The notes under the pieces: generated by a model
What the model saw: the letters and a program-made list of their open reading frames with translations, nothing else
Told to the model about the DNA's origin: nothing
The model's database searches: none
Part shown: positions 12,572 to 62,012 of the stretch, piece by piece
Numbering within the stretch: position 1 is the first letter of the stretch
Layout: every line of letters starts with the position of its first letter
Source of the DNA: Isurus oxyrinchus
Taxonomy: Eukaryota
NCBI GenBank assembly: GCA_026770705.1
Contig: JANJGN010000042.1
Span: 2,170,001-2,234,000 of the forward strand
Reading direction: 5' to 3'
DNA: 64,000 nucleotides
Position numbers and translations under genes: made by a program

Positions 12572-12641
12572 ATGCACGGATTGCCAAAAGGTCTTATTTT
12601 CATCATATATTATCCCGTCATTGCAGCGATCGGGATTCCAG
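12572..12641 (+). CDS. GPR139-like GPCR gene A, exon 1 (MHGLPKGLIFIIYYPVIAAIGIP+G)
   Basis: 70 nt = 23 codons + 1, ending at G|GTTAAG. The IYYP...GIP motif matches exon 1 of the minus-strand gene, and phase 1 fits the acceptor at 14031-14032. Confidence 0.88.
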
Positions 12642-14032
12642 GTTAAGTATTTTGGTTTGCTATGCTATTGAAATCATTGTTTAATCACTTCTCTTTGGTT
12701 TGCTTTCATTTTAGTGAATCATTGTTCGTATTTAGGAGCTTTGCTTCTACATGGTACGATATTCTTTCTCCCATTAAACAGGACAATCTATCAACATTAC
12801 GGCGACATCGTCCCAATTTATCACGCTAGACAATGTCACTTTTTTCCACTTCAAGGGAAATGCTTAATTTAATTCTCCATTTTAGCAACACAATTGTTTT
12901 CTTTTACTGACATGATTAGTCGTCATCACATGTCGAGTCGCTCAAGTTTGTCTGTGTCATTTCTTCCCTTGAACATAGTTTCTCCCCAATACAAGAATAA
13001 TAGTTCAGCAGTAACAATGCACTATCTTCCCTGAGCTAGTAACATTTAGTCAGTTTAATTGGACACTTTCATCAGTTTACCGCCACCGTTCGAGGTTTTA
13101 GATGTTCTTTTATTTTATTCTTGGTATTTTTAAAAAGCTTAATATATAACGCTGTTACCACTGAGGAAATGTTTTTCTATTGTTTCAACGGCATTGTCAC
13201 CGTGGGTGAATTATTACAGAGGAACTGTATCTGTATTATGCACTATCTCATTCTTTTCCCTTTAACCTTTCGTTGGAATATGAACAGTATTTATCTGATA
13301 AATCTGTGCAGAATATTAAATGACTGGCCCAGGGTTTCTTACCTTAGCGGAAACCTGGCACCCTGGGCAGCGAAGAATTCTCAGGGAGCTGAAGTTGGGC
13401 TTTAATCCAGGACGTTTTGACTCTAAAGCTTGACGTCTTTCAATTTAAAAGCAACTGAACCTTAAACTGTGTGTGGATTTCCACCCTGCTGTGAAGGATA
13501 GTTGTGTTCGCTGCACGTCATCATAACTCAGGAGTTCTAGTTACCCTTTATTTCCTTCCAAAGGAGTTTTTTTTTTCCATTCTTTCTGTTCTCATTTGCT
13601 GGATTATGCCCACAAGAGTAACACTTTGTATTTAATTCCATTCAACGCCATCTACTCAGTTTCTGTCAAATTCGTAGGTCGATTTAACATTGTGTACCTT
13701 TCTTTTTCCAATGTCCTAGCCTGTTCTTCTCTAAACAACAAGCAAGAGGATACTTGATTGTTTTTCATTTAACTGAGTAACAATGCAGCAATTTGAATAT
13801 TCACTATAGGACTGAGCCCGCATTCCTCCTGTAAATCAGCACAGTATTGACAATTTGCTGCATTTTGGAATGAGTCTTTCTTTCTCCACTGGAGTATATA
13901 AGTCATAGGACTGAAATGGGAACATTGCTCTCTTTTCATGACCAATGCTGTATTTGTGAGTTTCTCAACATTTTCTGTTCTATATTCATTTGTCCCCACC
14001 GCAAACTTACTGGTTATATTCCTCTGTCACAG

Positions 14033-14901
14033 CTAATTTGGCAGTAATTGTGATCCTGTCCCGAAGAAGATGCGGTCTCACTGGATGTATCACATACTAC
14101 CTGATGTCCATGGCCGTGACGGATCTCCTGATCATGATCCTTGCTGTGATGTTAAACCGGATTGTAGGTACATATTTCCCATTTAGTTTCCTCTCCATCA
14201 CTCCGGCCTTTGCTCTCAGTCTTGTGTTCATATATGGCGTCAGGGATTCTTCTGTCTGGGTGACAGTTGCTTTCACCTTTGATCGATTTGTAGCCATTTG
14301 TTGTCAGCAGCTGAAAACCAAATATTGCACCAAGAAATCAGCAGCTGTGGTCATAGGAACTGTCTGCGTTGTGCATTGTGCTAAAAGAATACCCTTGTAC
14401 TTTGCTTGTGAACCTTCTGTTATCACGGACAATACACCCTGGTACTGCAAACTAAAGCCAATATATTATTCGTCACCCGGATGGGTGGCATATGACAGCA
14501 TAAATGCCGTTTTAACCCCTTGTCTCCCATTCGTTCTTATTTTGCTGCTCAATGTTCTGACGGTCAGGCACATTGTTGTGGCCAGTCGAGCCCGCAGAAG
14601 ACTGCGAGCCCTCAGCAAGAGCGAGAAACAAAGCGACCCAGAGATGGAGAAGAGGAGAAAGTCCATCGTTTTACTCTTTGTCGTCTCGGGAAGTTTCATC
14701 CTGTTATATTTCCTCGCTCTTAAAACTTTCCTCTACGCACGAATTGCCAGCGTTAGTTATTTCGATGGCTCGAATTTCAATCAATCAAATATAATAATGG
14801 AGGAATGTGGACTTATGCTGCAGCTTTTAAGTTCCTGCATCAACCCCTTTATTTATGCAGGTACCCAGAGTAAATTCAGAGAGGAGTTAAAGAAGGTGTG
14901 A
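14033..14901 (+). CDS. GPR139-like GPCR gene A, exon 2 (312 aa spliced); C-tail truncated and C3.25 lost, possibly an incipient pseudogene
   Basis: tcacAG|CT AAT. Motifs ANL (TM1), MAVTD (TM2), TFDRFVAIC (TM3), LTPCLPF (TM5), NPFIY (TM7). A 1-nt deletion relative to copy B at ~14895 gives ELKKV* instead of ELKNGVKYP...FFK* (old stop at 14937-14939). Confidence 0.88.
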
Positions 14902-15899
14902 AATATCCATTGAGTCTGATTGTTAATTTTTTTAAATGATGAAAGCAGTGAAATCCAACATGAATTCTACATTATACCCCACCCATTGCTGTTGCTGTAC
15001 ATGTTACATATGGCTTCAACCCGCAGAAACAGAGTTACCTCCTGTCCGAGGTGTGAATTCAGAATTATATAACTAACTCTGCATTTTCCCAGTTTGTTTT
15101 TATTTTTTGTCCCCTTTCCAGAGCGGGCCTGGTACATTCCCAACTGTCCCTAAGGTCCCGGGGTGTCTCGACGTTCATGTAGGAGACAAAGTGTCCGACA
15201 AAAATGTATAACTTGGCAACAAAGTTTCACTATTAAATGTAGGAACCTTGCTACCTCCCCTTCCTATGTTTTGGAACTTGATGGTAGATGGCGCCCTGAA
15301 ATGGAAACGGACACTGTCCCCACCCATTGATCTATATTGAGCAGTCTCCGCTTCACACTTGAACTCTTTTTCCCATAAACATAGCAAGAGGGAACTGGAA
15401 TATTACAGACACAGATAAAGGAAACATTTTGTTCGCCTCTTCCATTTGGCAATGGAGGCGAAATCCGCAGAGTCATCATACAATATAAGTTACACTGGCA
15501 ACAATCTCCCCTTTTAAATGATTACAAATCGCAACTGGCCAGAACAAAAAGAAAACAAATTTAATGGAAACATTATCTTCACCATCCACAATGCATTATA
15601 AAAGTTTATTGCCAACCTGATACAGAAACAGTAATTAGAATGCAATTGTGGGTTACGCTTCACAATGACCCCCTATCCCAATCGTGGATTAAATATTACA
15701 CACTTGCTGTTATTTGGAATTTCCCGTGTCGTGACTTACAACCAACCGAAAGTCTCAGGACTCAGCATTGATCTCAGCAGAAAATCCAATCCAAGACATT
15801 CATGCTGTGTACATATTATCATTTGTTATGTCTTCCGATGTTAATTGAAACAAACCGATTGCTCTGCACTTTATAAGGGATTTGTCTAAACGATTAAGT

Positions 15900-16305
15900 A
15901 GCAGAAAAATGCACATGTTGTAGAAGCTTATGCTCTTGCACTTATCAGGACAATTTGCAAGAGTAACGCCGATTTCAACTGAACAAAGGACGGGAGAGCC
16001 TGTCTCTGGCTCATGGCCTCATGAAATGTCTTGACCAATCAGAGTCAACATACTTGATTTGAATGTAAACAACGGTTGACAGTTAACTTCCATTCATCAG
16101 GTCATTATCGCATTCTCTATTGCAACGCCACGAGTAATCCATTTTCACTCGCCCATCAATCATCACACTCTTCTCATGACGTTTTAAGTGTTGTTCCCTT
16201 TGATTTTTTTGTTACTCTTGCGAATTGTCCTGATGAGTCCAAGGTGAAAAGTTTCGAAAGCATGTGTCTTTGATCAGCACTCTCACATTCTGTTCTACCG
16301 AACAA
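15900..16305. mobile_element. Non-autonomous Penelope-like pseudo-LTR derivative with inverted arms; duplicate at ~62975-63375
   Basis: 15935-15967 is the reverse complement of 16211-16243 at 30/33 nt. The interior resembles the sequence following the Penelope-type C-terminus at 23240-23500 and the segment at 39270-39520. Confidence 0.65.
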
Positions 16306-16309
16306 CGAG

Positions 16310-17700
16310 TGAGTCCCATGTCAGTGGTCCGGAAACTATTGGAGAAAATTCTGAAGGAAAGAATCTACCTTAACTTGGAGAGAGAAGGTTTGATAAGAGA
16401 TATTCAGCATTGATTCTTTAGAGGTAGGTCATGCCTAACAAATTTGACTGAATTTTTGAGGAGGTGACCAGGTGTGTACATGATGGTAGTGCAGTTGATG
16501 TAGTTAATATGGATTTCAGAAAAGCCTTTGACAAGGTCCCATATGGCAGCCTTATAAATAAGGCAAATACACATGGGATACAGGGTAATTTGAAAAGGTG
16601 GATTATAAATTGGCTTAGTTGTAGGAGACAGAATGTAATGATAGAAGGCTGCTTTGGTGACTGAAAACCCGAGTCCTGTGGTGTACCACAGAGATCTGTG
16701 CTGGGTTGCCTATTATTCATTATTTATATAAATGACATAGATGACTATGTGGGGAGTAGGAATAGTAAGTTTGCGGATGACACAAAGATTGGCCGGTTGG
16801 TTTACAGTGAGGTTGAGAGGCTTGGGCTGGAGGAAGATATCGGCGTGGTGGTCAAATGGGCAGATAAGTGGCAGATGGAATTTACCACTGAAAAGCAAGA
16901 GGTTATACACTTTGGAAGGAGTAATTTGACAAGGAAGTATTCAATGAACGGCATGGCACTAGGAAGATCTGAGGAACAAAGGGACCTTGGTGCATGTGTC
17001 CATAAGTCTCTGAAGGCAGAGGGGCATGATAGTGGGGTGGTGAAAAAGGCATTTGGGACAATTGCCTTTCTCAATCGAGGCACGATTGCAAAAGTGGAGG
17101 GGTCATGTTGGAGTTGTATAGAACTTTGGTGAGACCACAGCTGGAGTGCTCTGTGCAGTTTTGATCGCCAAATGATAGGAAGGATGTGATTGTGCTAGAG
17201 GCGGTGTAGAGGAAGTACACGTGGATGCAGCCTGGGATGAACCATTTACCTTATAAAGAGTGGTTGGATAGAGTTGGGTTTTTTCGGCGAATCAGAGAAG
17301 ACTGAGGAGCGGCCAGTTCAAGGTGTACAAGCTTGTGAGAGGTATTGAAGGGGTGGATAGGGACAGCTGTTCCCCTTAGTCAAAGGCTCAGTCACGAGGG
17401 AACACAAGTTCAAGGTGAGGGGCAGGAGGTTTCGTGGGGATGTGAGGGAAAACCTTTTTTACCCAGGTATTGGGGACGGTCTGGAATACGCTGCCTGGGA
17501 CAGTGGTGGAGGCGAGTTGCCTCACATCCTTTATAAAGTGTCTAGATGAATACTTGGCACGTCCTAACATTCAAGGTTGTGGGCCAAGCGCTGGTCAATG
17601 GGATTAGTTAGGTAGGTCAGGTGTTTCTCACGTGTCAGTACAGACTCGATGAGCCGAAGGGCCTCTTCTGCACTGTGCGATCCTTTGATTCTGTGACTAC
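16310..17700 (+). mobile_element. 5'-truncated CR1-type LINE (RT and 3' tail)
   Basis: AVDVVNMDFRKAFDKVPY, LFIIYINDID, KFADDTKIG, WADKWQMEF, QRDLG. Tail ccgaagggcctcttctgcactgtgcgatcctttgattctgtga. Confidence 0.93.
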
Positions 17701-20479
17701 TTATTAAATTTTCCATGAAATGATTGTCATGATTATAAACAGCAGAATCAAATCTCTAAATTCGCTGACCTATCAACAATTGAAGCGAATGACTGAGTCT
17801 CTTCTCGCCTAAACATCGTTTTAATCATTTTATTATCTGAGTGAATGCACTTGAATTTGAAAGAATGGGACAACTGGCAATATGCTTCCTCGCCAATGGT
17901 GCAGGTGAACGATTTATTACCTGTGGAAACATTTCAATAAATCTCCAGCTGGGGTGGGCAAACGAATCCCATTCTATGGTCCAGGTATTGTCAAGCTTTG
18001 CTTCCGTAGAGTACGTCCTGCCCAGGTTGGGTAATCCATTGAAATCTATTCCACAGACAGAAGTGTTGCAGCGTCTCTCCCCGTTGCAAATGCTGCAACT
18101 TCAATTTAATTCTATGGAAGTGATTGCAGATCTTTGCATCGTCATTGCATTAGAACACTCTCAGTTGGGTGCCTGTTTTATTGTGCTTCCAGCAACACTG
18201 GCCTTTGAAATTAAATTCCACTGTCTGTATTGGCAAACATTGCTCCTTTTTTTTGTTTTACTTTCTGTTCTCCATTCGCAGGATCCCCTCTCGCTGTCGC
18301 CTGAAAGAATTGCTTTTGGATGGTTTTTAGTTTTGCATTTACCCAACAGCCTTGGAGTTCCTCTCCTGAACATGTTGACTCAGAGGAAAAGCAGGATACA
18401 TCCAGCTGCTCTAATATTTCCTATACTTCAGTTAGATCATGGGTAATCTATATATAACTTGCATCTACCCACTTTAGTTTTATTCTCTTTCAATGGTTTT
18501 CCTGAAAGTAGTCATTCTATCTCATTTTCACATGTTCGATTGACTCCGATTCTCTTTGAATCTTTAGGAGAAAATGGTCCAGGGGCATGGTAGCATAATA
18601 ATTATTTTAATGGACTAAAACACGAAATCCATTTTATTGATTCGCGACATAATTTAAGATCCCACAGCAGTGGCTAAAGTAGTTGAATTAAGTTCTCTAA
18701 ATGCAACTGAAATTAAGAAGGCAAAGAAAAAGAAAAATGACACATCACGAATAATGACCATGAAAGTATATTCTTATCAAGAAGGAAAAAATTGCGTTCT
18801 GTTTCATTAATGCATCTTAGTGCAAGGATTGTGCTTTAGTTCCCCTGCTTGGAGAACATGTGGTTCCAGACCCATGGAGAAGTATTTAAGTGATAACCAT
18901 TGTCTGAAATGGTCGAGCAAGCCGCTATGAAACAAAAAAAGAAAAGTAACAGTGTGAGGAACACTCGTGATTTTCCCAGATGCTGGAAGCTACAAAGGGA
19001 AAGCCAGCCCAATCGATCCTGCAAAGCCCTCCTCATTCACATCTTGGGACATGAGAGCTGACTCTCAAACTAGCCAATGGAAGGTCTGACATTGTCGGAC
19101 TCGCCGAATCAAACCATTGAGAAAATGTTCCAAACTCTACCATCACCAGCTCTATTCATGTGCTGTCCCAAAGGCATAATAACAAAATGTATCATAAAAT
19201 GTGGCACGCTATTTGGCCACAACAGGATGGAACATTTGTCCTCAAACTCGGTAAGGGCTAAATCACAATTAAATTTAGACAATGTTCAGATATCTCTTTG
19301 AGTTTTGCGAAGAGCAATTAGATCTCCTGGCCTTGAAGAAAAAAGCTTTGTGATCTTGAATACAACTATATCATTGCAGTAAAAATAATACATTGTACAT
19401 TCCATGGCTAGTAATTATAAAAACGTCAATCTTTCAAATTTGCGCCTATAGTTTTGGAGCCAATGTAGTTTTTAACCGCCAGGCATCAGAAAGGATACGA
19501 AGCAAAACACACAAGTTCAGTTATTGACCTGTTGCAGCCATCTTCTTAATTAATATGATCCATATAGAGAAGTCGTTTTCAAAATGGACATCATTTCAGC
19601 AGTTCAATGTTGCAATTGTGATCCATCTTTGAAAGTAATAATACCAGGCATCCAGTGTAGTTATATTACACATAGACTCCCATGTGGAAGTGTTTTCATA
19701 ATTATATGCCAATTTGAATTTTGTCTAGTTAGCAAATGTCATGTGAATTTTGATTGCTTCCTATACTAGGCTGTGCTATTAAAATCAGGGATTTGAATTG
19801 TTTATTTATTCTTGATGCTTTCACATGTCATGGATGTCACTGAACAGGCCATCATTTGTTGCCCATCCCTAATGACCTTTGTCCTGAGTGGCTTACTAGG
19901 CCATTTCAGAGGACAGTTAAGAGTCAACCACATTGTTGTGGGACTGGAGTCACAAGTAGGCCAGGCTAGTTAAGTGAACCAGATGAGTTTTTACAACAAA
20001 CTGTGATAGTTCCATGGTCACTATTGCTGGGGCTAGTTTCACAATTTCTGATTCATTCAACGAGTTTAAACTCTATCTGCTGCCGTGGTTTGATTTGATC
20101 CTCCCTCTCTAAGGTGTTAGCCTTCACACCTGGATTATTAGCTTTATGACAGTGCAACGGCGCCACCATCATCCCAATGATATGGAGAGAAAAAACATGC
20201 AGAGAAACACAGAGAGGTTTGGAAATCACACATACAATTGTGCTGCTTTAGGTTACACTGGGGATACGTAACTCCTTTCAGTTTAAGATTCTACTTCAAC
20301 CAATATATTGGTTTCATTTGTCCAATCCAGATATTTGAAGAAAGTTTATTTGAGATGTAAACTATTGTATCTCAATTAACCAATTATAAGAAACAATAAT
20401 TCATCGAAATGGATGAAATTATTTGAAAAGCAAGTATACAAAAATAAATCTGCAGTCTCTTTGTCCGCAGTGCTTTAGG

Positions 20480-21020
20480 CAAACTCACTAAATGGTCACA
20501 GCTTTCCCTTTCGGGCCTGAAAAGACCTGGGTATATCTCAAATTATTCGGGAAGACTCAGGTAGCCCAAAATTGGAGCAACAAAAAAAAAATGTTGGCAC
20601 TATGCAACGGCGACACGAGTGGTATTGTCCACGAATTGGTTGAAGATAATAGAACAAGCCAAGTTTCTACTCGCCAGGCAATTGAGTAACGCAATGTATG
20701 AATCCCAGCGCCAGCAAAGTGAGTCAGAGATCTCAGCGATTGGTCGGTCAAGTCAAACAAAATGTCCCTCCACCCGGTACGTAATATACCGAACAAAGAT
20801 CCAATTGAAGCAGCCCGCGCTTGTAAAACTCGAATCAAAACTCCAACAGTTAGAAATAATTCCACGAATGGTCACAGTCATTGAGAAGCCTTGAGTGCGC
20901 TAATTGCGGCACACTAGCAAGAACTTCAAGGTAATCAGTCAAGTTGTTCACGTGGTTCATTAAAACTTGTCAGGGGCAACATGCATTCATAAACAAGGAC
21001 TCGATCTCTGCAAACTAAAT
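20480..21020 (+). mobile_element. Penelope-like element relic (RT C-terminus / GIY-YIG region)
   Basis: FGPEKTWVYLKL, LSNAMYESQRQ..SQRLVGQVKQNVP, FKVISQ and ATCIHKQGLDLCK. Homologous to the minus-strand piece at 23438-23731. Family assignment is from recall. Confidence 0.6.
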
Positions 21021-21049
21021 AAATTTTCCTAGGTTTTTTTCAAATTTTG

Positions 21050-21430
21050 TGTCCAGAATTTAGGCTTCACTGGCTAGGCTAACATTTATTGCCAATCACC
21101 AATTGTCCTTCGGAAGGTGATGGTGAGCCGCGTTCTTGAACCACTGCAGTCCATGTGGTGTACATACAGCACAGTGCATTTACCGAAGAAGTTCAAAGAT
21201 TTAACCTCCACCACAGTGAAGGAGCGATGATCTGATCGAAGTCTGGATGGTGTGTGGCGTGGAGGAGAACTTGAATTCGATGGTGTCCTTATTTATTTCT
21301 TGCCCTTGATCTTCTAGGCAGTAGAGATCGTAGGTTGGTAAGATGATGTCTAAGAAGCCTTGGTGAGTTCCTGAAATGCATCCTGTACGTTGTTCACAAC
21401 TGCTGCCTCTTTGCATCGGTGGTGCAGGGA
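21050..21430 (-). mobile_element. 3' tail of the L2/CR1-group LINE seen at 29050-30290; a similar piece lies at ~7770-8050
   Basis: Reverse-complement similarity to 29900-30285 (catttattgcc...gaaggtg.tggtgagc.gc.ttcttgaac..ctgcagtcc). Confidence 0.75.
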
Positions 21431-21469
21431 CTGTTTGTTTGTCGATGCGGTGGTAATAGCTAAGTGATG

Positions 21470-22612
21470 ATAAGAAATTGCAACAGCAGTAAGCCATTAG
21501 GCCGCTCAAGCCTGCCCCGCCATTCAATAACATCATGGCTGATCTGCACCAGGTCTCAAATCCTCTTTACTGACAGCTCATCATGAAGCTCAACTCACGA
21601 TATTTCAAAAATCTATCCATCTCTTCTTTAAATACCTTCAGAGATCAAGCCTCCACAACTCTCTGGGGTAGAGAATTCCAGACATTCAATACTCTCAGAG
21701 AGAAGATATTCCTTCGCAACTCAGTTTTGTATGTGTGGCCCCTTATTATGTAACTATGTCCCCTAGCTCGAGATTCCCCCACTAAAGCGAACATTTTCTC
21801 AACATCTACCTGTCAAGCAACCCCTCCCCTCAGGATTCTGTTCGTCTCAATAAGATCATTCCTCATTCTTCGAAGGGCTAATAAATAAAGTCCTAATGTG
21901 TTTAGTCGTTCCTGATAAGTCAACTCCATCATCCCAGGAATCAGCCTAACGAATCCCCTTTGAACTGCATCTGATGCCAATATATCAATTCTTAAATACA
22001 GGGGCCGAAAGCGTTCACAGCACTCCAGGTGGGGCCCCACCGAATCCTGCATATTTGTAACAAGACCTCTCTATTTTTTAAACTGTAACCCCCTAGCAAC
22101 ACAGACCAAAATGCCATTTGCCTCCTTAATTACTTGTTACATTTGCATGTTAACGTTTTGTGCTTCGTACACAGGAACAATCAGAGCCTGCACGTTTTTG
22201 AAGTCTCTCTCCATTTTAATAGTCTGTCTTTTGATTCTTCCTACAAAAGTGAATGACCTCACACTTTCCAGCATTAAACTCCATCTGCCAAGTGTTTTTG
22301 CTCACTCACTCAACCTATCTACAACACCTTTTACATTCCTTATGTCCTTTCACAACATGTCTTCTCACCTATTGCTGTAGCATCAGCAAATTTGGATACA
22401 TCACACTCTGTCCGCTCCTCCAAGTCATTGCAATAGCTAATAAATAGTTGAGGTGCTAGGACTGATACTGTGGCACTCCATTTGTTGCGTCTTTCCAACG
22501 CTTCTGAAAAGGACCCATTAATCCAGACTCTTTGTCTCCTCTCTGTTATCCAATCCTCAATCCGTGCTAATACATCTCTCTCAATACCACGGGCTCTTAA
22601 CTTGTGCAATAA
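21470..22612 (-). mobile_element. CR1-type LINE relic (RT and 3' tail)
   Basis: HKLRARGIERDVLARIEDWITERRQRVWING, VSKFADAT, PHLECCERFRPLYLRIDI, LTYQERLNTLGLY. Confidence 0.9.
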
Positions 22613-22631
22613 GTTCTGTCAAGTTCCCTCA

Positions 22632-22735
22632 AGTTCTGTCGAAGGGTCATGAGGACTTGAAACGTCAACTCTTTTCTTCTCCGCCGATGCTGCCAGACCT
22701 GCTGAGTTTTTCCAGGTAATTCTGTTTTTGTTTTT
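22632..22735 (+). mobile_element. Short Penelope-like terminal repeat; related copies at ~12120-12220(-), 25425-25530(-), 26120-26230(+), 41310-41415(+) and 46020-46430(+)
   Basis: Shared motif gttctgt.gaag.gtcat..ggact.gaaac.t.aact...gatgctgccagacctgctgagtttttccagg.a.t.tgtttt. Confidence 0.65.
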
Positions 22736-23239
22736 AACTTGTAACAGATGTTCCTCATCCCTGTCATTATTTCGAAAGCTATAAATTCCTTGCAAAATGT
22801 TCTTCCCAGAACTGGACTCAGATGCTCCAGCTGAGCCAAAACGTTCTTGTGTTTTTATCCTAGGTTGCTACTTATAGAATCAAACATCCTGTATGCCGAT
22901 TTATAAACATATGGGACATGTATTTTGCTCCTGCAATCCCATTACCATCATATCCTTTAATCGAAATTTCCTATCCTTATTCTTCATTCGAAGATGATCC
23001 ACTTGACAGATAGCTACGTTAAAGTTAATCTACCAACTTGTATGCCCATTTTATAAATCTGTCTATGGCTTTTGGAAGTTCAGCACCCTCTCACATTGGT
23101 TTGCAATATTTCCAAGTTTTGTCGCATCTGTAAGCTTTGAAATTATGTCACGTACACCCAAGTCAAAGCCATTATATATATCCAGAAAAAGGGTGCTGAC
23201 ACCAACTCCTGGCGAAATCTTCCTCCAATTAGAAACATT

Positions 23240-23790
23240 TTTTGACTCGTAAGGTCACTTTTTAAGAATACTGATGTAAGAGGAAAACAGCAATTTATAC
23301 TGCATGTGAAGAGAGTGCTGATTGCTTGGCAAATGGACTCTGGCAGAGGAATTGTCATGGAGAATGCACCAATTATGGCGACTGAAAGTTAACTTCTAAG
23401 CTTTGTTTGAAATTTTAGCTAGGCAGCTTGGCCTTGATTAGTCAATGCATTGCCTTGAGGAATGAGTCAGCGAATGGCTGTCACTTATTGTGTTCAGCTG
23501 AACCAGGCACAATGTGTGTGCATGTCTTTTCTGCTTGCAAAGAACAGGGCCCTGTGTATTAAAATATGCAGCGCCCAAATACATGCAAATGCAACATTCT
23601 GCAAGCCCAAATGATAATCTAAATTGGTTGTCAGCGTTATTCTTAGTGCAATTATTTTTTTTTAAACAAATGTTCTCGAGTTCTGGAATCGCATCCAATG
23701 TTGAACACTGTAATTTGAGCTTTACCAGCATGGCCCGGCCGGTTGGATATGTTCTGTACTTTGCCCGTTTCGAGGTTCAGTGAGCAGCAA
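23240..23790 (-). mobile_element. Penelope-like element C-terminus plus pseudo-LTR relic
   Basis: NNCTKNNADNQFRL...LGAAYFNTQGPVLCKQK, followed by non-coding sequence similar to 16010-16100 and 39270-39400. Confidence 0.6.
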
Positions 23791-39250: not shown

Positions 39251-39269
39251 TGAGAAACGAATCAGCCTG

Positions 39270-48449: not shown

Positions 48450-48453
48450 CTGT

Positions 48454-48496
<43 letters not shown>

Positions 48497-50194: not shown

Positions 50195-50352
50195 TGAGTG
50201 GCTCAGAAAACTGACTGGAAAATAAACAGCCGAACACAGGCTTAATACCAGTGCAATGATAATAACATGGAGATCTGTCACCGCCATGGATACTGCGTAT
50301 CTGGAAAGACCACATCTTCCTCGGGAACGGATCACGATGGTCAGAAAGTTAG
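50195..50352 (-). pseudogene. Truncated GPR139-like exon 2 (copy of 3110-3267)
   Basis: Near-identical to 3110-3267. Confidence 0.85.
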
Positions 50353-53300
50353 CTGCAAGCGAGAGAGAGAGAGAGAGAGAAAGAGATGAGAGAGAAGGGA
50401 AGAATTAGTGCTGAATCTCCCAGCTACAACGTCCGTTTGGCGAGAGAATGGTATGGCACATGGGCCATCGATACTTCATTCAACGCTGGAACTGATTAGT
50501 TTACCAATGCATTAATTCTGGTCCATTTTTTATTTATATTGTCTCAGATAAAGTGGAAGTCGGAATATAAAATGACACAAAACTGTTACTTTCCGATTCA
50601 TGTACATTTTATGTAATCTAGAAGGAGAAGGAATTGATCTTCACTAACGTATTAAATTGGCAAAAGGACAACCTGAAAATGGCATAAAAATACAGATAAA
50701 AGCTCAATACATTTATTCATTTATAAATACAGTAAATAATAACGTTATGAAACTTTAAATCACTATAATGAAGAAACCAATCGAATGACAGGAAATAAGG
50801 TATGGGTAATAACGAAATCCTAATAAATATCAGAAGGAACCAATGTACGTTGAAAAAGAAAATCTAAGCGAACACCATTGATTCAACCTGGGTTTTGTCC
50901 CTGTGGAAGCAAGACAAAGCGCATCAAAGGCGTTTTTTCAGTTCAGTGACTGCTGTACTGGGAGATTAGGTCTCGCAGCAGTAGTGAGGATTTTCAACTG
51001 ATAAAGCAGAAAGACCTCGGTTTACAGCCTCGTCGGAAGGATCACAGAGTAGATAGTGCTGGACTTCCTCAGGGGCATGGAGCTGGGCTACAGACACCAG
51101 TTCGGAAGTAGGGAACAAACCCAGGGCTTTCCGAATGAACACTGAGATTTCAAAATTTAGTTGAACTAAATAAAGTGGCTACGAATATAATTATTTCCGG
51201 CTCCGAAGGATATCACACAGCCTTGAAAACAAAGTGCCTTTAAAGAGAATTGAATGCAGTTGTTAACAGCAGCAACGAAGTTAAAAATGGTCTTCATAAC
51301 AGTTCATCGACTGCAATGATTGATGTTAAAGTTACGCAATGCAAATCGAACACCAATAATCAAGTGGCGGGTGAACAAAAACATGGAAAATACTTACCAC
51401 TATCATTTATAGTTTCACGCTAATTAGAAAATATGGTGACGTGCAATGGTTAAGCTTAAAGCGCCAGAGAAAAATACCTTTCCACAAATGGTATTCCTTC
51501 TCCCACAGTTTGCTCATTCAGTTATCCAACAACAACCCTTCGCAATGTTCTGTTCTTCTCTAAACTATTTACTGTACCACATGGCTTATTTTCGGCAGCA
51601 ATTTGGATACGAAACTTACTGTTGCTTCATTTTGATCCTTCTAAATGCGGTGAAAAGCTGAGGCCCACATACAAATCCTGCGAATCAGCTGTCACTCCCT
51701 GTCAAGTCAACTGTATTTGCATGATCCATCAACAAATTAGATGAGCTTTGTACACACCGCAACCATCGTGAGTTAAATTTACATCGATATCAATGTAAAA
51801 TTAACATCTAAGCATGTAAAATAAATGACCCGTTTAATGAAGAAATTGAGGTGTAAATTACAATATTGAAGTAACAATTAAACTATATTATGCAGCAACC
51901 GTATCATTGCCAATAATCCTGTCAACACAAGAAACAGAATGCCTGGGAACTCATAAATCAACCTTCATGCGTTCCTTAAAACGTTGCACCCAAGCAACTT
52001 TACGATTGGTAACTGGGAACATATTTTCTGCTGTCTACCTTATCTCAACCCGTTTAATCTAGGAAGTTTCTACCAAACATCTCATCAATTCCCTTTCCTC
52101 CGATGAGAACAACCCAAGCTCCACTCACAGAATATTGCTGCCAAGGAGCTGCATCCCTGTTAACATTCGAGTAAATCTCCTCTACACTGCATAAAGGACA
52201 CAAACATTTTACCTGGTGCATGGTGACCAGAAACGGACGCAGCAATTTAATTATGGTCTAACCAGAGTGTAAATTGTTTCAGCACAGCTTCCTCGTATTT
52301 ATGCTCACTTTCTCGATTTATGAACTCGAAAATTCCAAAGCCTGTTGTAACGATACTTTCAACATGTCATGGCACCTTTGAATATCAATTCACATGGACC
52401 CTCAGGTCCCTCTGTCCTTACGCACTGTTTAGAACCTTAACATTAAATGGATGTTGTTCCTCACTGGCCATTTTACTAAATCTAGCATTTCCTGGGTTAA
52501 GTCCCATCTGCCACTTTGATTCAGATGCTGTAGACTTTTGAAATCGGAAGTCCTCTTCCTAACTGTTTCCAACATTCTGATATGTCAGAGTTCTCGTAGT
52601 ATTGTCTATGAAAAAGGTTAAATGTTGCGTTTCCAGTTTTATCTGAAACTAGCATTGCCTTCTTCATCTTGTTTCGCGCTTTTATTTCAATAATTGGGCG
52701 AGCACAGGCTTGGCTAATTTAGTTTAAATTATTCGCAACTACACTAGCTGTGCAACATTACTGGTCACAGCTCTGTTGTTTTGCATACCGTCCCTATTGA
52801 ACAAGTGCCTCCAGCTGATTACTCCCCCCCCCCACCCCACAAGACCAGCCTCTCCCCTTCCCATACTTCCCTGAAGAATCAGTGCTGCTCCATGCTGAAT
52901 GCCATTTGCAGGACAGACTAAGAGTTGCAAGGTCGCAGAATGATCTCAGGGGGCTTCAGTGTCCATCACCAAGCGTGTCTCCGAAGCACCAATAAAAATT
53001 GACCTGGCTGCATGCCTATGGACGTTGCCTGTAGGAGGTGGTGAGAGAGCCAAAGAGAGGGAAGAACACACCTTACCTGATCATAAGTAAACTACCGGTA
53101 GCAGATGTAGATGCACCTGTCCACCATAGTATTGGGAGAAGCCTCCAGTACGCATTCTATGTAAACTTGAAAACTGTCACACTGTCATGCTGTGTGGCGC
53201 TACCATTGTGCTAAATCAAATCAAGAAAATTAAAGTCGGATTTCCATTAGGTGCAGTGAGCCATCAGCAGCTATAGCATTGAATCAAATGTTAGTTTGTA

Positions 53301-56199
53301 AACTCACGGCCCGTTATATCCCTCACTTGGACATTACGAACATATGAAGCGATCAATTCTGATAAAGTGAATGGTGTCGGACAGCATGCCAGGGCCTGCA
53401 CCCACCGGACCTAAAAAGGAGGTTTCGACCTGGTGAAGCAAAAAAAAACAGAAACCTGTGCAATCCAAGCAACTGAAAAAGCATGTGATTGACAGCACTA
53501 AGATATCCCACAAAGAATTGGTCAAACCAAAGATCTGCAAGCCTTCCACATCCAATCATGAATAGCGGTGGACAATAGAAGAATAAAGAGAAAGAGGGTA
53601 TTCCACGAACATCCCTAACCCTAAAGATGGGTGAGTCCAGCATATCGGTGCAAAAAGAGATGGCTGAAGGATTTTAATCCACATTCAGCCAGAACTTCCG
53701 AGTGGAAGATCCATCTCAGACTCCTCCTGAGGTCTCTATCGTCCCAGGGTTCTGTCCTCACCCAATTCGATTGTTTCCATTTAATATTAAAGACGATTGA
53801 GTACAAAATATGCCACAAAGGCAACGGGCCCGATAAAAGAGCCGCCTGTAGAATTGAAGATTAGTGCTTCAGAATGAGCCGACTCTATTTCCGACTTCTG
53901 CACATCTGAGAAAGCTGGCAATGACTCAAACAATTGGAAGCTGCCAAAATATGGCCTGTCCAGAAAAGGAAGGAAAAATCCATTCCGGTCAAATATCGCC
54001 ACATTAGTCTACATTGCATTACAAGCAAAGTGATGGAAAGTCTCCCCATTTTTGTTAATGGTTGGTCGAAATCATTCATGTGAATGGCGCTGTGCTTCAC
54101 GAAGAGTTTCGTGGTATCTTTGTAATGTTTCCCTGTCCTTCCCTGGAACGTTGGCCACTTAAGTGATGGAAAATTTGGAGCATGTGGTGTGGGGTCGATT
54201 TCCTTGAGGCATGAGCATAAATTTAAAATTAATAATAGTTCATTGCAGTATTAATGGAGAGCTGCGCTGATTGAAGTTCGGTCAATCGGGTGGCATCTAA
54301 AACTTAAGCCATTTTCACGATCCCAGGTGCATGCAAGAAACATCATGTGGAGAATTTGGCTTGGAGGCGCTTTATATGAATTAAAAATATCCCTATTTTT
54401 GCCCATAGCTTCGGTCACATTGAGCAAAACGGTGTTGCTGTGGACTGTGCGTTGACCCAAGTAATTTATTAATACTGAAACATACATAGAAGTATCGGAG
54501 TGCATGTGCTTAAAAGTACCAAGATTGGTCAAAGGGGAATATGATATTCTAACGATAATAGAAATCTGCCACAATATGTGGGGTGATTGAAAGTTTCATA
54601 TTCCTGTTTGCAATGCATTTTTGAATAATTCATTTTAACTCTTTGCAACGTAAACGTCTCTCATCTTCCCACTGTTCTGCGTCCGATGGAACATCCCAGG
54701 TAGCGTGGCAGCTCAAGTGCGATTTATCAGCTCCCAGCAGTTGGGTTATGTGTTTGATATGAGGAAGACATTCTTACTAGGACTGCAATATTGTCTCCAC
54801 TCAATACTGATACCACCTTTTCTATTTATCCCTGCAATATGGCCCTAGGTGGCAAGGTCAATCTTTATTGCGAATTGCTAATTTTCTTTAGAATTTCGTG
54901 GTGAGCTGCCTTCTTGAGCCCCTTCAGTCCATGTGCGCTATCTTCATCCATAATACTGCAAGGCAGGAAGTTTCACAGTTTGACCAAGTGATGAAAAATA
55001 TTTTCAAGTTTCGAGCGTTAGTGAGATGCAGCTGCTGGTGTTTCTGTGCCTGTTACCTTTGTTTTTCAACACAGTAAAACCCGGACTTTGGAAGGTGCAG
55101 TTACAGAATACTGATAACTTGATTTTTTTACCCCATGGGATGTGGGCATCGATCAGAAGGCCATAATTGTTATCAACTTGAGCGCAGTTAAGAGGCAGAC
55201 ATTTTACCGTGGGTCTGCAGCCGCATGTAGGCCAGATCGGTTAAGGACGGCACATTGTCTTCCCTAAAGGACATTCGTGAAGCAGATGGGTGTTTGTAAC
55301 AATCGATGACCGTTTTTTGTGGGCACAGTTACCGAGACAAGCTTGATAATCTAGTCGCATTAAATGAATTAGCTGCCATGTTATGATTTAAAACAATGTC
55401 ACAATGGTATGTGCCTCGGCCTCAGGATCACCCTATCACGCTGCCCCGAATGTTGACGTAGGGGGTTCGACTATCGCAATTACATTAAATTCCAAGGGGA
55501 AGATGTTTGACGTCCTCATCCTTGAATTGGTAACATTCTGCTGTATCCTTACTGAATACATTCTGCACACCTGGATCCCTTGTTACAGGTTAGAATCAGA
55601 AAATGCTGTTCATTGTCACGATAAACATATAATACTGCTGAAAAAGACCAGTCCAGAATAGTAGATATTGCTCACAACTGGACCTGCACACACTGAATGT
55701 AACCGTACTGAAGAAGCAATGTGCACACTAAACCTAACTACGATGATTTTAAAGAGATCTCATTGCTTGCAATACTGATGATTTGGGATTGTTAACATTG
55801 AATCGAATGAGGTTGAACTGGAGCAGCCCACGCCAGAAGTAACAGTGTATAACTGAACCAGTCCCCTTTGAACACCGGTGTCGAGAAATGAGATGTGGAC
55901 GTTGAGAATTACTGTGCAGACCTGAGTCATTTCACGCTCACTATGGACCAGCAGGCCCCATCTCTGTGGAAAACAATCATACATAAATTGAGCTTTTCAC
56001 ACTTGAAGGAAACCATGTCGATGAAATCAGTGCGATAGTGAGAGAGGGATATTGGCTTAGAAAATCTAAATGTAGATTCAACTTGGGTGGAGCTAAGAAG
56101 CAACAATGAGTGGAAAAGATCACTTATCTGCAGACCTCCAGACAGCAGTGTCGACATAGGGGACGGCATAAAATAGGAACTTGGACTTGCATGTAACAA

Positions 56200-58600
56200 G
56201 GGTGCTCCAGAAATCATGGATGACTTTTAACTACATATAGAGTGTGCAAACCAAAATAGCAATTACAATGGCGAATAGATTCCTGTAGTGTTTACGAAAT
56301 GTTTTTTTTTTCAGACTCGTATGTTGAGGAACGGACTGGGGATCAGGCTATCCTAGATTTGGTATAGTGAAATGAGAAGCACTTAAATCATAATCTTGTT
56401 GTGTTGGGTCCTTCGGGGAACAGTGACCAACATGATAGAATTCTTCATTGGAATGGAAAGTGAAGTAGTCTGGTCTGAAACGAGGGTGCTAAATCTAACA
56501 AAGGAATCGACAAAGGTAGGAGATTTGAGTTGGCTAAGATCGATTGGAGTACTTTATTAAAAGGAAAGATGGTGCGTAGACAACGTCCAATGATTAACGA
56601 AAGTGTGCATACATTTCAAAAGTTATACTTTATTTTCTTGCCCAAAAGAACAAGACAGGAAAAACGGCCCCACCATGGGTAACAAAATAAATTAAGGATA
56701 GCTTTAGATCTAAAGAGAGTTCATGTGAAGATGTTAGAAACATTAGCAAGCCTGAGGATTGGGAACAGTTTAGAACTCAGCAAAGGACGACCAAGAGTTC
56801 GAATAAGGGGGGAAAATATTGGATGAGGGTAAACTTGCAAGTAACATAAAAGTGGTCATTAAAAGCATCTATAAATATATTTATTAAAAAACCTCAGTCT
56901 GAAACGGGAGCATTTATAATAGAACAATTACTTTAGCTCTGTCTTCACTTAGGGAGATATAAATAACTTCACAGAAATACGAAGGAACCTCGGGTCTATT
57001 GAGAAGGAAGAATTCAACGAAATTAATGTTACAAACACAGTTGTGCTGGAGGAAGTAATCGGACTGAAAGCCAATCAATCCCCAAGGCCTGATAATATAC
57101 ATCTTGGGGTACTCAAGGATGTGGCCATGTAAATAGTGAGTGTAGTGGTTGTCATCTTCCAAAATTATGTAGATTCTGCAACAGTACCGGCAGATTGCAG
57201 CGTGTTAATTATAACCCCGGTATTTAAAAAAAAAATGAGTGAGGGAGAAAACAACGAATTACAGACCAGTCAGCCGAACCTCAATAGTAGGGAAAATGCT
57301 AGAGTCTATTGTAGAGTATGTGATAACAGGGCACTTGAAAAATATCAATAGGATGAGACAATGTCAACATGTATCCATCAGGGGAAATCATGTTTAACAA
57401 TCCTTATGGAGTTTTTAAGGACATAACCTGCAAAAAAGGTAAGGGAGAACCAGTGGCTGTGATGTATTTGGAATATCAGAAAGTCTTTGACAAAGACCCA
57501 CATAAAAGGTTAGCGTGTAAAATTAAAGACAGGAAAGAGAGCAGGAATAAGTGGGTCTTCTTTGGCGTGGCAGGCGGTGACGAGTGGACTAGCAGGGATC
57601 AGTGCTTTGGCCCGAGCTATTTACAATATATATAAATATATGTATATATATATAATATATATATATCAATGATTTACATGACGCAACAAAAGGAAAAATT
57701 TCCAATTTTTGATGACACGAAACTTGGTGAGGATGTGAGCGATGAGGCGAGTGTTCAGACGCTTCAAGGCGACTTACGCAGGTTCAGTGATTGGGAAAAT
57801 AAGTGTGAAGTTATCTACTATGGCAGGAAAAGCATATTAGCATAATATTATTTAACTGGTGATAAATTTGGAAATGTTGATGTGCAAAGGGACCGAGATG
57901 CCCTTGCGCAGCAATCACTGAAAGCAAGCATGCTGGTGCAGCAAGCACTTAAGGACGTAAATGGTACGTTGACCTTTATTGCGATAGGATTTGAGAGCAG
58001 CAGCAACGATGTCTTACTGCAGCGGTGCATGGTCATTGTGAGATCACACCTGGAGTAGAGTGTGCAGTTCCGGTCTCCTTATCTAAGAAAGGATATATTT
58101 GCCGCAGAGGGAGTTCAGCAAAGGTCCGCCACGCTGATCTCTGGGCTGGTAGAATTGTCATATGAGGGGAGATTGGGCCGGCAAGGCCTTTATTCATTGG
58201 AGCTCAGAAGAATGAGAGGCGATCCCACTGAAACATATGAAACTCTGACAGGGATCTACAGGCTGGTGCAGGGATGATATTTCCTCTGACTCGGGCGTCT
58301 AGAACAAGGGGTCACAGACTCAGGATACGGGTTAGACCATTTAGGACTGAAATGACGAGAAAGGTCTTCAATCAGAAGGTGGCGAACCTGCGGAATTCTC
58401 TAGCACAGAGAGCTGTGGAGGTCAAGTCACTGCATATATTGAAAAAGTAAATAAATAGACTTCTAGCCTTCAAATGCATCAAGGGGTATGGGGAGAGTGC
58501 AGGACTAAGGCGTTGAGATAGAGGATCAGCCATCATCAAACTGAATGGCGGAGCAAGCTCGAAGGGCTCGAAGGAGTAATCCTACTCCTATTTTCAATAT
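56200..58600 (+). mobile_element. CR1-type LINE relic (copy of 9130-11515)
   Basis: Near-identical, with a longer (TA)n tract at ~57626-57667. Confidence 0.9.
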
Positions 58601-59656
58601 TTCGGTGGATAATGCTTTTCCGGACACTGAAAGGAAGCATGAGGAATTAACTATCTGCGCAAGATTTATAACACTGCTTCACATGTGCACATTGAAGATA
58701 GTAGTTAAAATGGGGCCTGTCCATATTCAATGCAAGATGACTGACCTGGGCCTTTGCAGACTTAGTGCAGCCGTGCATAATCTCGCCTGGCGACACGGAA
58801 AGCGATTTACGGGAAAAGGACGTGCACACTTACCCTTCCTTATCCGTCATGAATGAATGTAACGTGGCAGAAATGGAGCCTCGACACATCACATAACCAT
58901 ACCGAACTGGAACGGTCCACATTACCTAGAATCGTGCTCAACTGGACCTCCGTTTACGGAGTTTAAGCGTACTCTCTATAATTATGCATAATTAACGCAT
59001 AAGCGCTTGATTGCATCTGATCAAGTAAAACGTAGCCGTTCACAGCTACACAACTGTGCACAATCACTACAGCTGGGTTTGACATGTCTGCAATGAATTT
59101 AACTCATGTGGAATAATCCACAATGCAAGAAGCCGTACACAAGATTTGAGTACTTTAAAGCTAAATAAAGGTGATGAGTTGAACATTTCCATACCAAATG
59201 CGAACAGAATGAGATAAAAAATGCTGGAAATACGCAATAGACCGTTCAGCATCTGTGGAGAGAAAACGGTAAAAGGTTCAGATCCATGACTTTACATCGA
59301 AGTTGGGGAATAGGGAGCAATGGAAGAGTTCTTGTTTTCACTATAGCGGCGGGAAACGGTTGTGGTAAAGGGCAGATGATAAAGAAACATCAATGTAGGT
59401 TTGTGTTAATGTGGAAGACAGAAGGGCACTTTGTGAGGATGTTCCTCCAGAACAATGTCAGTGACCTTGAAGAGCTTTCTACTCCGTCAAAACAAAAATA
59501 ATTTCCTGTCAGCTGCAGCACGACCATCTTTGTTTCAATTAGCGTAATTATTGCAAAAGATCAAAGCGTGTAATTGTCTCCCTGGAGGCTGGCGTGAGAT
59601 ATATATGTGACTGTCTTTAGTTGTGGTGCAGAACACACTCGCAGCTGGTGACAGAA

Positions 59657-62012
59657 ATGCACGGATTGCCAAAAGGTCTTATTTTCATCATATATTATCC
59701 CGTCATTGCAGCGATCGGGATTCCAGGTTAAGTATTTTGGTTTGCTATCCTGTTGAAATCATTGTTTAATCACTTCTCTTTGGTTTGCTTTCATTTTAGT
59801 GAATCATTGTTCGTATTTAGGAGCTTTGCTTCTGCATGGTACGATATTCTTTCTCCCATTAAACAGGACAATCTATCAACATTACGGCGACATCGTCCCA
59901 ATTTATCACGTTAGACAATGTCACTTTTTTCCACTTCAAGGGAAATGCTTAATTTAATTCTCCATTTTAGCAACACAATTGTTTTCTTTTACTGACATGA
60001 TTAGTCATCATCACATGTCGAGTCGCTCAAGTTTGTCTGTGTCATTTCTTCCGTTGGACATAGTTTCTCCCCAATGCAAGAATAATAGTTCAGCAGTAAC
60101 AATGCACTATCTTCCCTGAGCTAGTAACATTTAGTCAGTTTAATTGGACACTTTCATCTGTTTACCGCCACCGTTCGAGGTTTTAGATGTTCTTTTATTT
60201 TATTCTTGGTATGTTTAAAAAGCGTAATGTATAACGCTGTTACCACTGAGGAAATGTTTTTCTATTGTTTCAACGGCATTGTCATCGTGGGTGAATTATT
60301 ACAGAGGAACTGTATCTGTATTATGCACCATCTCATTCTTTTCCCTTTAACCTTTCGTTGGAATATGAACAGTATTTATCTGATAAATCTGTGCAGAATA
60401 TTAAATGACTGGCCCAGGGTTTCTTACCTTAGCGGAAACCTGGCACCCTGGGCAGCGAAGAATTCTCAGGGAGCTGAAGTTGGGCTTTAATCCAGGACGT
60501 TTTGACTCTAAAGCTTGACGTCTTTCAATTTAAAAGCAACTGAACCTTAAACTGTGAGTGGATTTCCACCCTGCTGTGAAGGACAGTTGTGTTTGCTGCA
60601 CGTCATCATAACTCAGGAGTTCTAGTTACCCTTTATTTCCTTCCAAAGGAGTTTTTTTTTTCCATTCTTTCTGTTCTCATTTGCTGGATTATGCCCACAA
60701 GAGTAACACTTTGTATTTAATTCCATTCAACGCCATCTACTCAGTTTCTGTCAAATTCTTAGGTCGATTTAGCATTGTGTACCTTTCTTTTTCCAATGTC
60801 CTAGCCTGTTCTTCTCTAAACAACAAGCAAGAGGATACTTGATTGTTTTTCATTTAACTGAGTAACAATGCAGCAACTTGAATATTCACTATAGGACTGA
60901 GCCCGCATTCCTCCTGTAAATCAGCACAGTATTGACAATTTGCTGCATTTTGGAAAGAGTCTTTCTTTCTCCGCTGGAGCATATAAGTCATAGGACTGAA
61001 ATGGGAACATTGCTCTCTTTTCATGACCAATGCTGTATTTGTGAGTTTCTCAACATTTTCTGTTCTATATTCATTTGTCCCCACCGCAAACTTACTGGTT
61101 ATATTCCTCTCCCACAGCTAATTTGGCAGTAATTGCGATCCTGTCTCGAGGAAGATGCGGTCTCACTGGATGTATCACATACTACCTGATGTCCATGGCC
61201 GTGACGGATCTCCTGATCATGATCCTTGCTGTGATGTTAAACCGGATTGTAGGTACATATCTCCCATTCAGTTTCCTCTCCATCACTCCGGCCTTTGCTC
61301 TCAGTCTTGTGTTCATATATGGCGTCAGGGATTCTTCTGTCTGGGTGACAGTTGCTTTCACCTTTGATCGATTTGTAGCCATTGGTTGTCAGCAGCTGAA
61401 AACCAAATATTGCACCACGAAATCAGCAGCTGTGGTCATAGGAACTGTCTGCGTTGTGCATTGTGCTAAAAGAATACCCTTGTACTTTGCTTGTGAACCT
61501 TCTGTTATCACGGACAATACACCCTGGTACTGCAAACTAAAGCCAATATATTATTTGTCACCCGGATGGGTGGCATATGACAGCATAAATGCCGTTTTAA
61601 CCCCTTGTCTCCCATTCGTTCTTATTTTGCTGCTCAATGTTCTGACGGTCAGGCACATTGTTGTGGCCAGTCGAGCCCGCAGAAGACTCCGAGCGCACAG
61701 CAAGAGCGAGAAACAAAGCGACCCAGAGATGGAGAAGAGGAGAAAGTCCATCGTTTTACTCTTTGCCATCTCGGGAAGTTTCATCCTGTTATATTTCCTC
61801 GCTCTTATAACTTTCCTCTACGCACGAATTGCCAGCGTTAGTTATTTCGATGGCTCGAATTTCAATCAATCAAATGTTATACTGGAGGAATGTAGCTTTT
61901 AAGTTCCTGCATCAACCCCATTATTTAGGCAGGTACCCAGAGTAAATTCAGAAAGGAGTTAAAGAATGGTGTGAAATATCCATTGCGTCTGATTGTTAAA
62001 TTTTTTAAATGA
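59657..62012 (+). pseudogene. GPR139-like GPCR gene B (duplicate of A): exon 1 59657-59726, exon 2 61118-62012
   Basis: Exon 1 coding sequence matches gene A. A 13-nt deletion after 61893 shifts the frame at the start of TM7 (stop at 61900-61902), and TAT>TAG at 61926-61928 hits the NPxxY tyrosine. Retains the ancestral tail ELKNGVKYPLRLIVKFFK*. Confidence 0.92.

Follow-up and report, generated by a model that had tools for sequence, protein, structure and literature searches.

Organization of the locus

The 64,000-nucleotide stretch analysed here (the window; C42:2170001-2234000 of assembly G000, in which C42 is a scaffold of 7.08 Mb) comes from the shark Isurus oxyrinchus and carries two alpha/delta-type T-cell receptor (TCR) variable (V) segments, V1 and psi-V2, among genes for GPR139-like G protein-coupled receptors (GPCRs). 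This arrangement raises the question of whether the V segments belong to a working TCR locus into which GPCR genes have spread. Our reading, to which we give a probability of about two in three, is that V1 and psi-V2 are displaced, orphon-like TCR V segments, likely neutral passengers of a GPCR block of approximately 50 kb that has been copied about 30 times among IgM/IgW miniclusters. We found no support for the idea that T cells delete GPCRs woven through a functioning array of TCR V segments.

Based on six-frame translation, Pfam, and tblastn, the gene order from 5' to 3' was GPCR relics, GPCR A (+), GPCR C (-), V1 (+), psi-V2 (+), relics, and GPCR B (+). The order and strands given in the initial annotation of this DNA were thereby confirmed, with the exception of the relic at 47850-47945, which lies on the plus strand, and so was the placement of GPCR genes on either side of the V segments. 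Self-comparison of the window revealed that positions 1293-16925 are repeated at 48396-64000 with 97% identity, and the match runs 36 kb past the window end, up to C42:2269995. The window content corresponds to one and a third tandem copies of a unit of about 50 kb that consists of GPCR relics, A (+), C (-), V1 (+), and psi-V2 (+). Beyond the window, the second copy contains a second GPCR C at C42:2249026, V1 at C42:2262691, and psi-V2 at C42:2265741. Because the repeat continues in this way, GPCR A and GPCR B are one gene in two tandem amplicon copies. Both had been listed separately; they do exist, but A is truncated, B is frameshifted, and they are the same gene twice. The amplicon copies and the V segments are as follows.

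1293..47394, amplicon copy 1, about 46 kb, defined by its 97% match to 48396-64000 and to C42:2234001-2269538
48396..64000, amplicon copy 2, extending to C42:2269995 and carrying its own GPCR C, V1, and psi-V2
39987..40068, plus strand, V1 leader exon, from ATG to GTAAGT; spliced from 40068 to 40537 in one contig of sequencing run X1
40537..40844, plus strand, V1 V exon, TCR alpha/delta-type, open
40845..40883, plus strand, V1 recombination signal sequence (RSS) with a 23-nucleotide spacer (23-RSS), CACCACG-23-ACAAAAACT, non-canonical heptamer
43590..43901, plus strand, psi-V2, with two stops and a frameshift ahead of the second Cys
43902..43940, plus strand, psi-V2 23-RSS, CGCAGCG-23-ACAATAACT, invariant CAC lost in this copy

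Identity of V1 and psi-V2

V1 has a split leader, composed of the leader exon, a phase-1 intron, and the V exon, and the GT..AG splice was seen in one contig. The V exon matched the Pfam V-set domain (E 2e-13) with both Cys residues and the Trp present, and its top single-domain matches in the PDB were TCR alpha chains. These matches, together with a closer relationship to TRAV/TRDV than to immunoglobulin heavy chain V segments (VH), bear out the TCR alpha/delta-type identity first assigned to it. V1 shared 27-46% identity with V segments of the main array described below, and in a tree of 43 rows it formed its own clade (98/99) outside the VH/TAILV clade, the tree fixing no deeper position. 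A conserved Tyr in the YxC motif is a feature of TCR V segments. The V1 of the window reads CYC, with Cys in place of that Tyr; YYC is kept in 18 of the 30 V1 copies of the genome and lacking in the other 12.

Recombination signals pair by the 12/23 rule and have an invariant CAC in the heptamer. The V1 heptamer, CACCACG, keeps the CAC and has three mismatches, and judged by sequence the 23-nucleotide spacer and the nonamer appear good; the heptamer is CACCAYG in 30/30 copies. Neither the V1 nor the psi-V2 signal passed an RSS scan with two heptamer mismatches allowed. Of the description of V1 as open and with an RSS, the open frame stands and the RSS is present but has a poor heptamer; likewise, psi-V2 has a 23-spacer element, the heptamer of which is poor and has lost its CAC in the window copy. 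The psi-V2 frameshift is common to all 27 other copies printed in that frame (29 other copies in all), indicating that psi-V2 died before the amplification.

The supporting V-delta of NAR-TCR is a leaderless V located downstream of a NAR V-D-J cassette. This identity was ruled out for V1, which has its own leader and no other V-like frame upstream in the window. No full-length shark TCR chain containing V1 was found at E<=1e-8, and the best 120 of 295 matches in a profile search with V1 were mostly multi-V gene models. Orthologs of V1 in named sharks were not identified, with no relative above 46% identity among the 150 matches listed from a 50%-cluster library.

Copies of the block and their IgM/IgW neighbors

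Among the best 150 of 1280 candidates scored, V1 had 30 copies with 86-100% identity on 11 scaffolds, namely 10 on C38, 8 on C42, 3 on C49, 2 on C131, and one on each of seven others, including C26:5.96 Mb. The next-best matches in the same set reached at most 49% identity and were mostly located at C26:23-40 Mb, the main V array, which contained none of the V1 copies. Copies on C42 and C38 occur in both orientations and have private substitutions and indels, with a mean intron difference of 2.4%.

The surroundings of V1 are shared along with it. psi-V2 lies about 3 kb behind V1 in 29/29 other copies, GPCR C 9.9-13.7 kb upstream in at least 19 of 30, GPCR A 26-34 kb upstream in at least 21 of 30, and a same-strand IgM VH 119-172 kb downstream in at least 12 of 30; the counts for GPCR C, GPCR A, and VH are lower bounds drawn from top-match lists. 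V segments and GPCRs therefore co-expanded, as had been suggested, in the form of cargo of one amplicon copied about 30 times. Because the spacing between GPCR C and V1 recurs among copies, an assembly misjoin at 33-40 kb is unlikely.

Downstream of the window, C42 continues with the remainder of copy 2, three further GPCRs, and an IgM minicluster that is intact, starts at C42:2382072, 172 kb downstream of V1, and has the layout V(23)-(12)D1(22)-(12)D2(12)-(23)J, where D and J denote diversity and joining segments, followed by four C-mu exons. IgM genes were found on C42 at 0.12, 1.44, 2.39, 2.59, 2.65, and 3.91 Mb, and IgW at 1.07 Mb. We take the C1-set exons on the V1 scaffolds to be IgM/IgW constant exons, the names following their secretory tails. 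A near-identical IgM VH family comprised 36 full-length copies (89-100%), largely on V1 scaffolds.

Related blocks are present at C20:75.9-78.2 Mb and C26:0.6-12.5 Mb. The C42 IgM cluster was 94-96% identical in the coding region to a cluster at C20:76.1 Mb, and the C42 IgW and V1 blocks shared 82-87% identity with C26 blocks at 0.7 and 5.9 Mb. On C20, a chromosome-scale scaffold, the stretch at 75.9-78.2 Mb holds the same GPCR/IgM block (GPCR A 88%, GPCR C 91%, VH 92-95%), with no V1 match there among the best 150 of 1280 candidates. Additionally, two IgM clusters (C126:336200-338400 and C38:11192879-11194900) are without the approximately 400 bp between D1 and D2, both inner RSS being gone and the outer RSS kept, like a germline D-D join, and a third (C101:1253376-1255400) has an insertion of approximately 630 bp between D1 and D2.

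TCR core, main V array, and distribution of GPCRs

A complete TCR alpha/delta core was identified at C242:590-752 kb, on a scaffold of 814 kb. It contains a TAILV-like V, eight J-delta-like segments, and, at 617-619 kb, a constant (C) exon and a transmembrane (TM) exon. About 80 J-alpha-like segments occupy 660-743 kb, and another C exon with its TM exon follows at 749-752 kb. A pattern combining an RSS with the J motif FGxG gave 16/16 matches on C242 and none in the reversed control. From their order and TM motif, the first C gene is probably C-delta and the second C-alpha. A PDB search with the putative C-delta exon returned mostly immunoglobulin C domains and TCR delta at E 1e-4. C-alpha is single-copy in the genome, on C242, and C-delta occurs only on C242 and at C26:29.9 Mb; a scan with Pfam PF09291 (TCR alpha C) gave one doubtful match, on C5. 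Just downstream of C-alpha, at C242:764-777 kb, lies a long satellite with repeat units of approximately 43 bp.

An apparently intact second TCR-delta cassette, with a TAILV-like V and seven J-like segments, is located on the minus strand at C26:29.90-29.93 Mb. Compared with C242, its C exon was 85% and its TM exon 98% identical at the amino acid level, with about 90% identity over 50 kb, which makes it a paralog and not an allelic copy; it is not accompanied by a copy of C-alpha. The surrounding C26:23-40 Mb is a 17-Mb array in which TCR-type V segments of both orientations are intermingled with dozens of IgM miniclusters.

Searches with the J pattern, C-delta, and C-alpha found no TCR-type J or C on C42, C38, or C49. 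The possibility that J and C segments lie downstream of V1 was not borne out: none was found on the 7.08-Mb C42, the core being on C242 and the delta cassette at C26:29.9 Mb, and downstream of V1 an IgM minicluster stands in place of TCR J/C. Orphons are defined by a location away from the major locus, either on a different chromosome or at a great distance. V1 lies outside the main V array on a scaffold without TCR J/C, and C42 has no chromosome placement.

GPCRs were present in 7/23 10-kb stretches beside the window and in 4/8 at C26:5.8-6.0 Mb. None was found in 27 sampled 10-kb stretches of the main V array at C26:23-40 Mb, in 27 on C242, in 12 at C26:12.9-22.5 Mb, or in 6 on C88, a scaffold with a PSMB5-like gene; the stretches were mostly picked around V or C matches and cover <2% of the C26 array. 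The suggested interdigitation of GPCRs with the shark TCR V array was thus supported by the sampled stretches neither of the diverse array (0/27) nor of the core (0/27). We also rejected GPCRs as a specific feature of TCR loci, as dozens of scaffolds carry them and the sampled core has none.

Selection on the cargo of the amplicon

The ratio of non-synonymous to synonymous polymorphism (pN/pS) was obtained by counting distinct variants against the majority codon; copies share ancestry, so that the P values are optimistic. For V1, pN/pS was 0.82-1.28 (P 0.4-1.0), indistinguishable from neutral, with 3 stop variants observed and 2.6 expected. Eight of the 30 copies are broken, and among 23 recent copies the variability per site was 0.110 in the exon and 0.126 in the intron. 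For the IgM VH, pN/pS was 0.31-0.42 (P<=0.002), in line with purifying selection, with 20 of the 21 examined copies open; this test covered 21 of 37 family matches, and the frameshifted copy at C126:336200-338400 was left out of the ratio. GPCR C was open in 17 of 18 copies, with 1 stop variant against 4.8 expected (P=0.049), and GPCR A in 7 of 22. Their pN/pS values (0.59-0.83 for GPCR C and 0.60-0.81 for GPCR A) were significant only at a kappa of 1.

Transcription and occurrence in other organisms

One 263-nucleotide contig of X1, probably an RNA run (depth 3.1), skips exactly the predicted V1 intron with GT..AG borders, indicating that the organism of X1 makes a spliced transcript from a V1-family gene. 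The contig has no exact match to any V1 copy of this genome and stops at 40724, inside the V exon before the V end, so that it gives no view of rearrangement; a V-J join was not observed. V1 coverage was absent from runs X8, X9, and X10, which has no bearing on expression.

In DNA-like runs of another organism (organism B), V1 and psi-V2 were covered at about 95% identity level, with at least two V1 variants, one of which has 8/8 listed differences in common with the C26 copy. These results suggest that the pair and its first duplication predate the split from organism B. The second V1 paralog of organism B shows mostly non-synonymous changes.

Interpretation

We consider the following history the most likely. 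An ancestral V pair would have been displaced into the region of immunoglobulin heavy chain (IgH) and GPCR genes before the split of two related species, and unequal crossing-over or segmental duplication may then have multiplied the block, which would be kept through selection on the IgM clusters and some of the GPCRs. V1 would give a germline (sterile) transcript from its own promoter and would seldom rearrange, because its heptamer is weak and no TCR J segments are nearby. With V1 as a passenger, T cells would only rarely lose GPCR genes somatically through V-to-J joining, and such losses would serve no function. The alternative raised at the outset, V orphons captured in a GPCR cluster, comes closer to this result, but the cluster is an IgH/GPCR region.

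Several observations weigh against this history. C42 is unplaced, and the V1-family copy at C26:5.96 Mb is on a scaffold that also carries the V array and a TCR-delta cassette. In published shark maps (PMC12227049, table S1), TCR V segments are scattered among IgM clusters across 9 Mb, and distance alone is therefore no proof of disuse. Intact splice sites and an open frame are found in 22 of the 30 V1 copies, and these open copies, together with the leader-V splice in X1, leave room for rearranged use of V1. Of five differences private to the X1 transcript and the main copy of organism B, four are synonymous (about P=0.02, a count that leaves aside the second paralog of organism B), a weak hint that V1 may be under constraint outside this genome. 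Moreover, some V1 copies may be haplotigs, one pair being identical over 1 kb, and with recent copies differing by 2.4% in the intron the neutrality test on V1 is of low power, the copies not being independent.

The explanation that survives best beside this one, which we nevertheless hold to be unlikely, is that V1 represents a distally placed, functional V subgroup of TCR alpha/delta and can be joined to J-alpha or D-delta across megabases, whether by deletion, by inversion, or in trans, its amplification having raised its share of the repertoire. If so, a T cell making such a join by deletion would lose the GPCR and IgM genes of the allele concerned. Most V1 copies keep the leader, splice sites, both Cys, Trp, 23-spacer, and a near-consensus nonamer; a spliced V1-type transcript is present in X1; DNA runs of organism B contain an open V1 ortholog, one variant of which has A at heptamer position 4; and V segments among IgM clusters are the rule in the shark maps of PMC12227049. 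However, the searches for TCR J and C gave nothing on C42, C38, or C49, V1 variation is neutral, and the heptamer is CACCAYG throughout (30/30), whereas readable RSS of array V segments have A at position 4. In addition, the C26 copy of V1 and the C26 delta cassette could probably not join productively in cis, because the V1 copy lies downstream of the cassette on the same strand and the coding joint would land on the excised circle.

Far less probable is that the V1 23-RSS joins the 5' 12-RSS of the IgM D1 or D2 about 120-170 kb downstream, yielding a chimeric TCR-V/IgM heavy chain and deleting the intervening GPCRs and VH in B cells. Such a join is permitted by the 12/23 rule, since D1 and D2 have a 12-RSS and V1 a 23-RSS. 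The same-strand geometry exists in at least 12 of 30 copies, the cluster at C42:2382072 with its C-mu exons is intact, and the IgH region would be accessible in B cells. No such chimeric transcript was seen, though, and a native VH with a good RSS approximately 0.4 kb from D1 would outcompete V1. Shark IgH rearrangement is described as mostly intra-cluster in the text of PMC12227049, and the weak heptamer, the neutral V1 variation, and the lack of the geometry in 18 of 30 copies, per the lists used, count against it as well. The reading that, with some 30 V segments parked in this way and at least 12 of them upstream of same-strand IgM, shark B cells join a T-cell V to IgM D-J-C-mu is very doubtful. 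If they did, the outcome would be antibodies with TCR variable domains and the somatic loss of GPCR genes. Such joining would mirror, in the opposite direction, the known IgHV-to-TCR-delta trans-rearrangement, and the chimeric chains would be new.

Equally improbable is that the assembly accounts for most of the copies, through retained haplotigs or false duplication, and that the actual locus has few. In favor of this, unplaced scaffolds hold most copies, two copies show no difference over 1 kb, and contigs of organism B point to only 2-3 variants (depth being no copy number). Against it, the 8 C42 and 10 C38 copies lie in both orientations with private substitutions and indels and a 2.4% mean intron difference, and no N was found in the fetched stretches checked for it.

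The GPCR genes

The GPCR genes and relics of the window are as follows.

487..1366, minus strand, GPCR pseudogene relic with stops and frameshifts (tblastn), just outside the amplicon boundary
3116..3265, minus strand, relic of a GPCR exon-2 5' fragment (tblastn)
12572..12641, plus strand, GPCR A exon 1, from ATG to GT donor, phase 1
14033..14901, plus strand, GPCR A exon 2; a 1-nucleotide deletion near 14896 replaces the normal last 13 residues
26863..27764, minus strand, GPCR C exon 2, intact
33035..33131, minus strand, GPCR C exon 1, intact, with GT donor
47850..47945, plus strand, GPCR exon-1 relic without GT donor
50201..50350, minus strand, GPCR fragment relic (tblastn), copy of 3116-3265
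59658..59727, plus strand, GPCR B exon 1
about 61118..62012, plus strand, GPCR B exon 2, with a frameshift in TM7 near 61896; pseudogene copy of GPCR A

GPCR C, annotated as intact from the beginning, is indeed an open two-exon gene for a protein of 332 amino acids, and it is the sole fully intact gene among A, B, and C. All three matched Pfam 7tm_1 (E 3e-22 to 3e-16). In human genes of the GPR139 group, the first exon is short and an intron interrupts TM1. GPCR A, B, and C fit the Rhodopsin-type seven-transmembrane (7TM) plan and share this gene structure. Relatives in the databases numbered 2148 proteins at E<=1e-20, of which the best 120 were all chondrichthyan and 117 of these 120 bore the label 'probable GPR139'. 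Like GPR139, GPR142, and GPR210, these receptors are class A 7TM proteins; their putative assignment to that group goes by database labels and a weak structure match. Unlike human GPR139, to structures of which they aligned over almost the full length but weakly (E 5e-5), they belong to a family that is huge in this genome, with >7000 first-look candidates and members on dozens of other scaffolds. GPR210 subtypes have been named in bony fish (Rinne et al. 2019, PMC6504862), and the word 'shark' has no occurrence in the text of that paper by term search.

A further GPCR, at C42:2164951-2165808, 4 kb before the window, has a 319-amino acid frame with 73% identity to GPCR A. It has roughly 40 copies, and because most are stop-free it is a better candidate for selected cargo than GPCR A. 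Within the amplicon, an older 1.9-kb tandem duplication (78% identity) of the GPCR exon-2 5' fragment occurs at 1208-2943 and 3119-4885, with copies at 48427-51965.

Implications and comparison with known systems

If V1 and psi-V2 are passengers, shark IgM clusters can become more numerous through large segmental duplications in which orphan GPCRs and a stray TCR V are taken along, with selection visible on the co-amplified IgM VH and not on the TCR V. TRAV gene counts taken from this assembly would overstate the repertoire by about 30. In the nurse shark, nine expressed V-alpha families have been described (Ott et al. 2018, PMC5931798). The GPR139-like family would also be added to the published gene content of the IgH/TCR region.

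The human TRBV/OR9-2 and IGHV/OR15-16 genes are orphons of immunoglobulin and TCR loci, some of them open and most unused. Like these, V1 and psi-V2 are V segments that have RSS and were probably moved out of the main array when a larger segment was duplicated; unlike these, they are surrounded by IgH clusters offering 12-RSS partners downstream, occur as a tandem amplification, and may share the chromosome of the TCR core. Mammalian TRA/TRD loci are flanked by olfactory receptors, and trypsinogens lie within TRB. The shark locus is similar in that a fast-duplicating bystander family occupies the same duplication units as antigen-receptor genes. It differs from mammalian TRA/TRD in that the GPCRs are two-exon and GPR139-like, occur on dozens of other scaffolds, and were not found in the sampled stretches of the TCR core and the main V array.

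The closest known system is the elasmobranch antigen-receptor complex (AgRC), in which TCR alpha/delta-type V exons lie between IgH clusters and IgHV-to-TCR-delta trans-rearrangement is common, according to the text of Flajnik et al. (2025, PMC12227049). As in the AgRC of that paper, IgM/IgW miniclusters have TCR-type V exons between them (C42 has 8 V1 copies), the TCR core has a TAILV and C-delta followed by C-alpha, and PSMB5 accompanies IgW clusters, here on C88. The AgRC is also marked by linkage to the TCR core, PSMB5, and UrIg2; in the present assembly, C42, the TCR core (C242), and the PSMB5-like gene (C88) are on separate scaffolds. The catshark sheet of table S1 in PMC12227049 has a single TCRa/dV at 72 kb from an IgM cluster, close to IgW and psmb5. 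By term search, the text and two supplements of PMC12227049 contain no GPCR term except 'olfactory epithelium', and judged by titles and abstract beginnings no publication linking GPR139-like GPCRs with shark TCR or IgH loci was found. TCR V exons among shark IgH clusters are therefore already published (PMC12227049), and the association with GPCRs was not found in print. Unlike the AgRC as published, one V subgroup is amplified here approximately 30-fold together with GPCRs and IgM clusters, and the new aspect is this amplified IgM/GPCR block carrying a stray TCR V within the known IgH/TCR-V arrangement.

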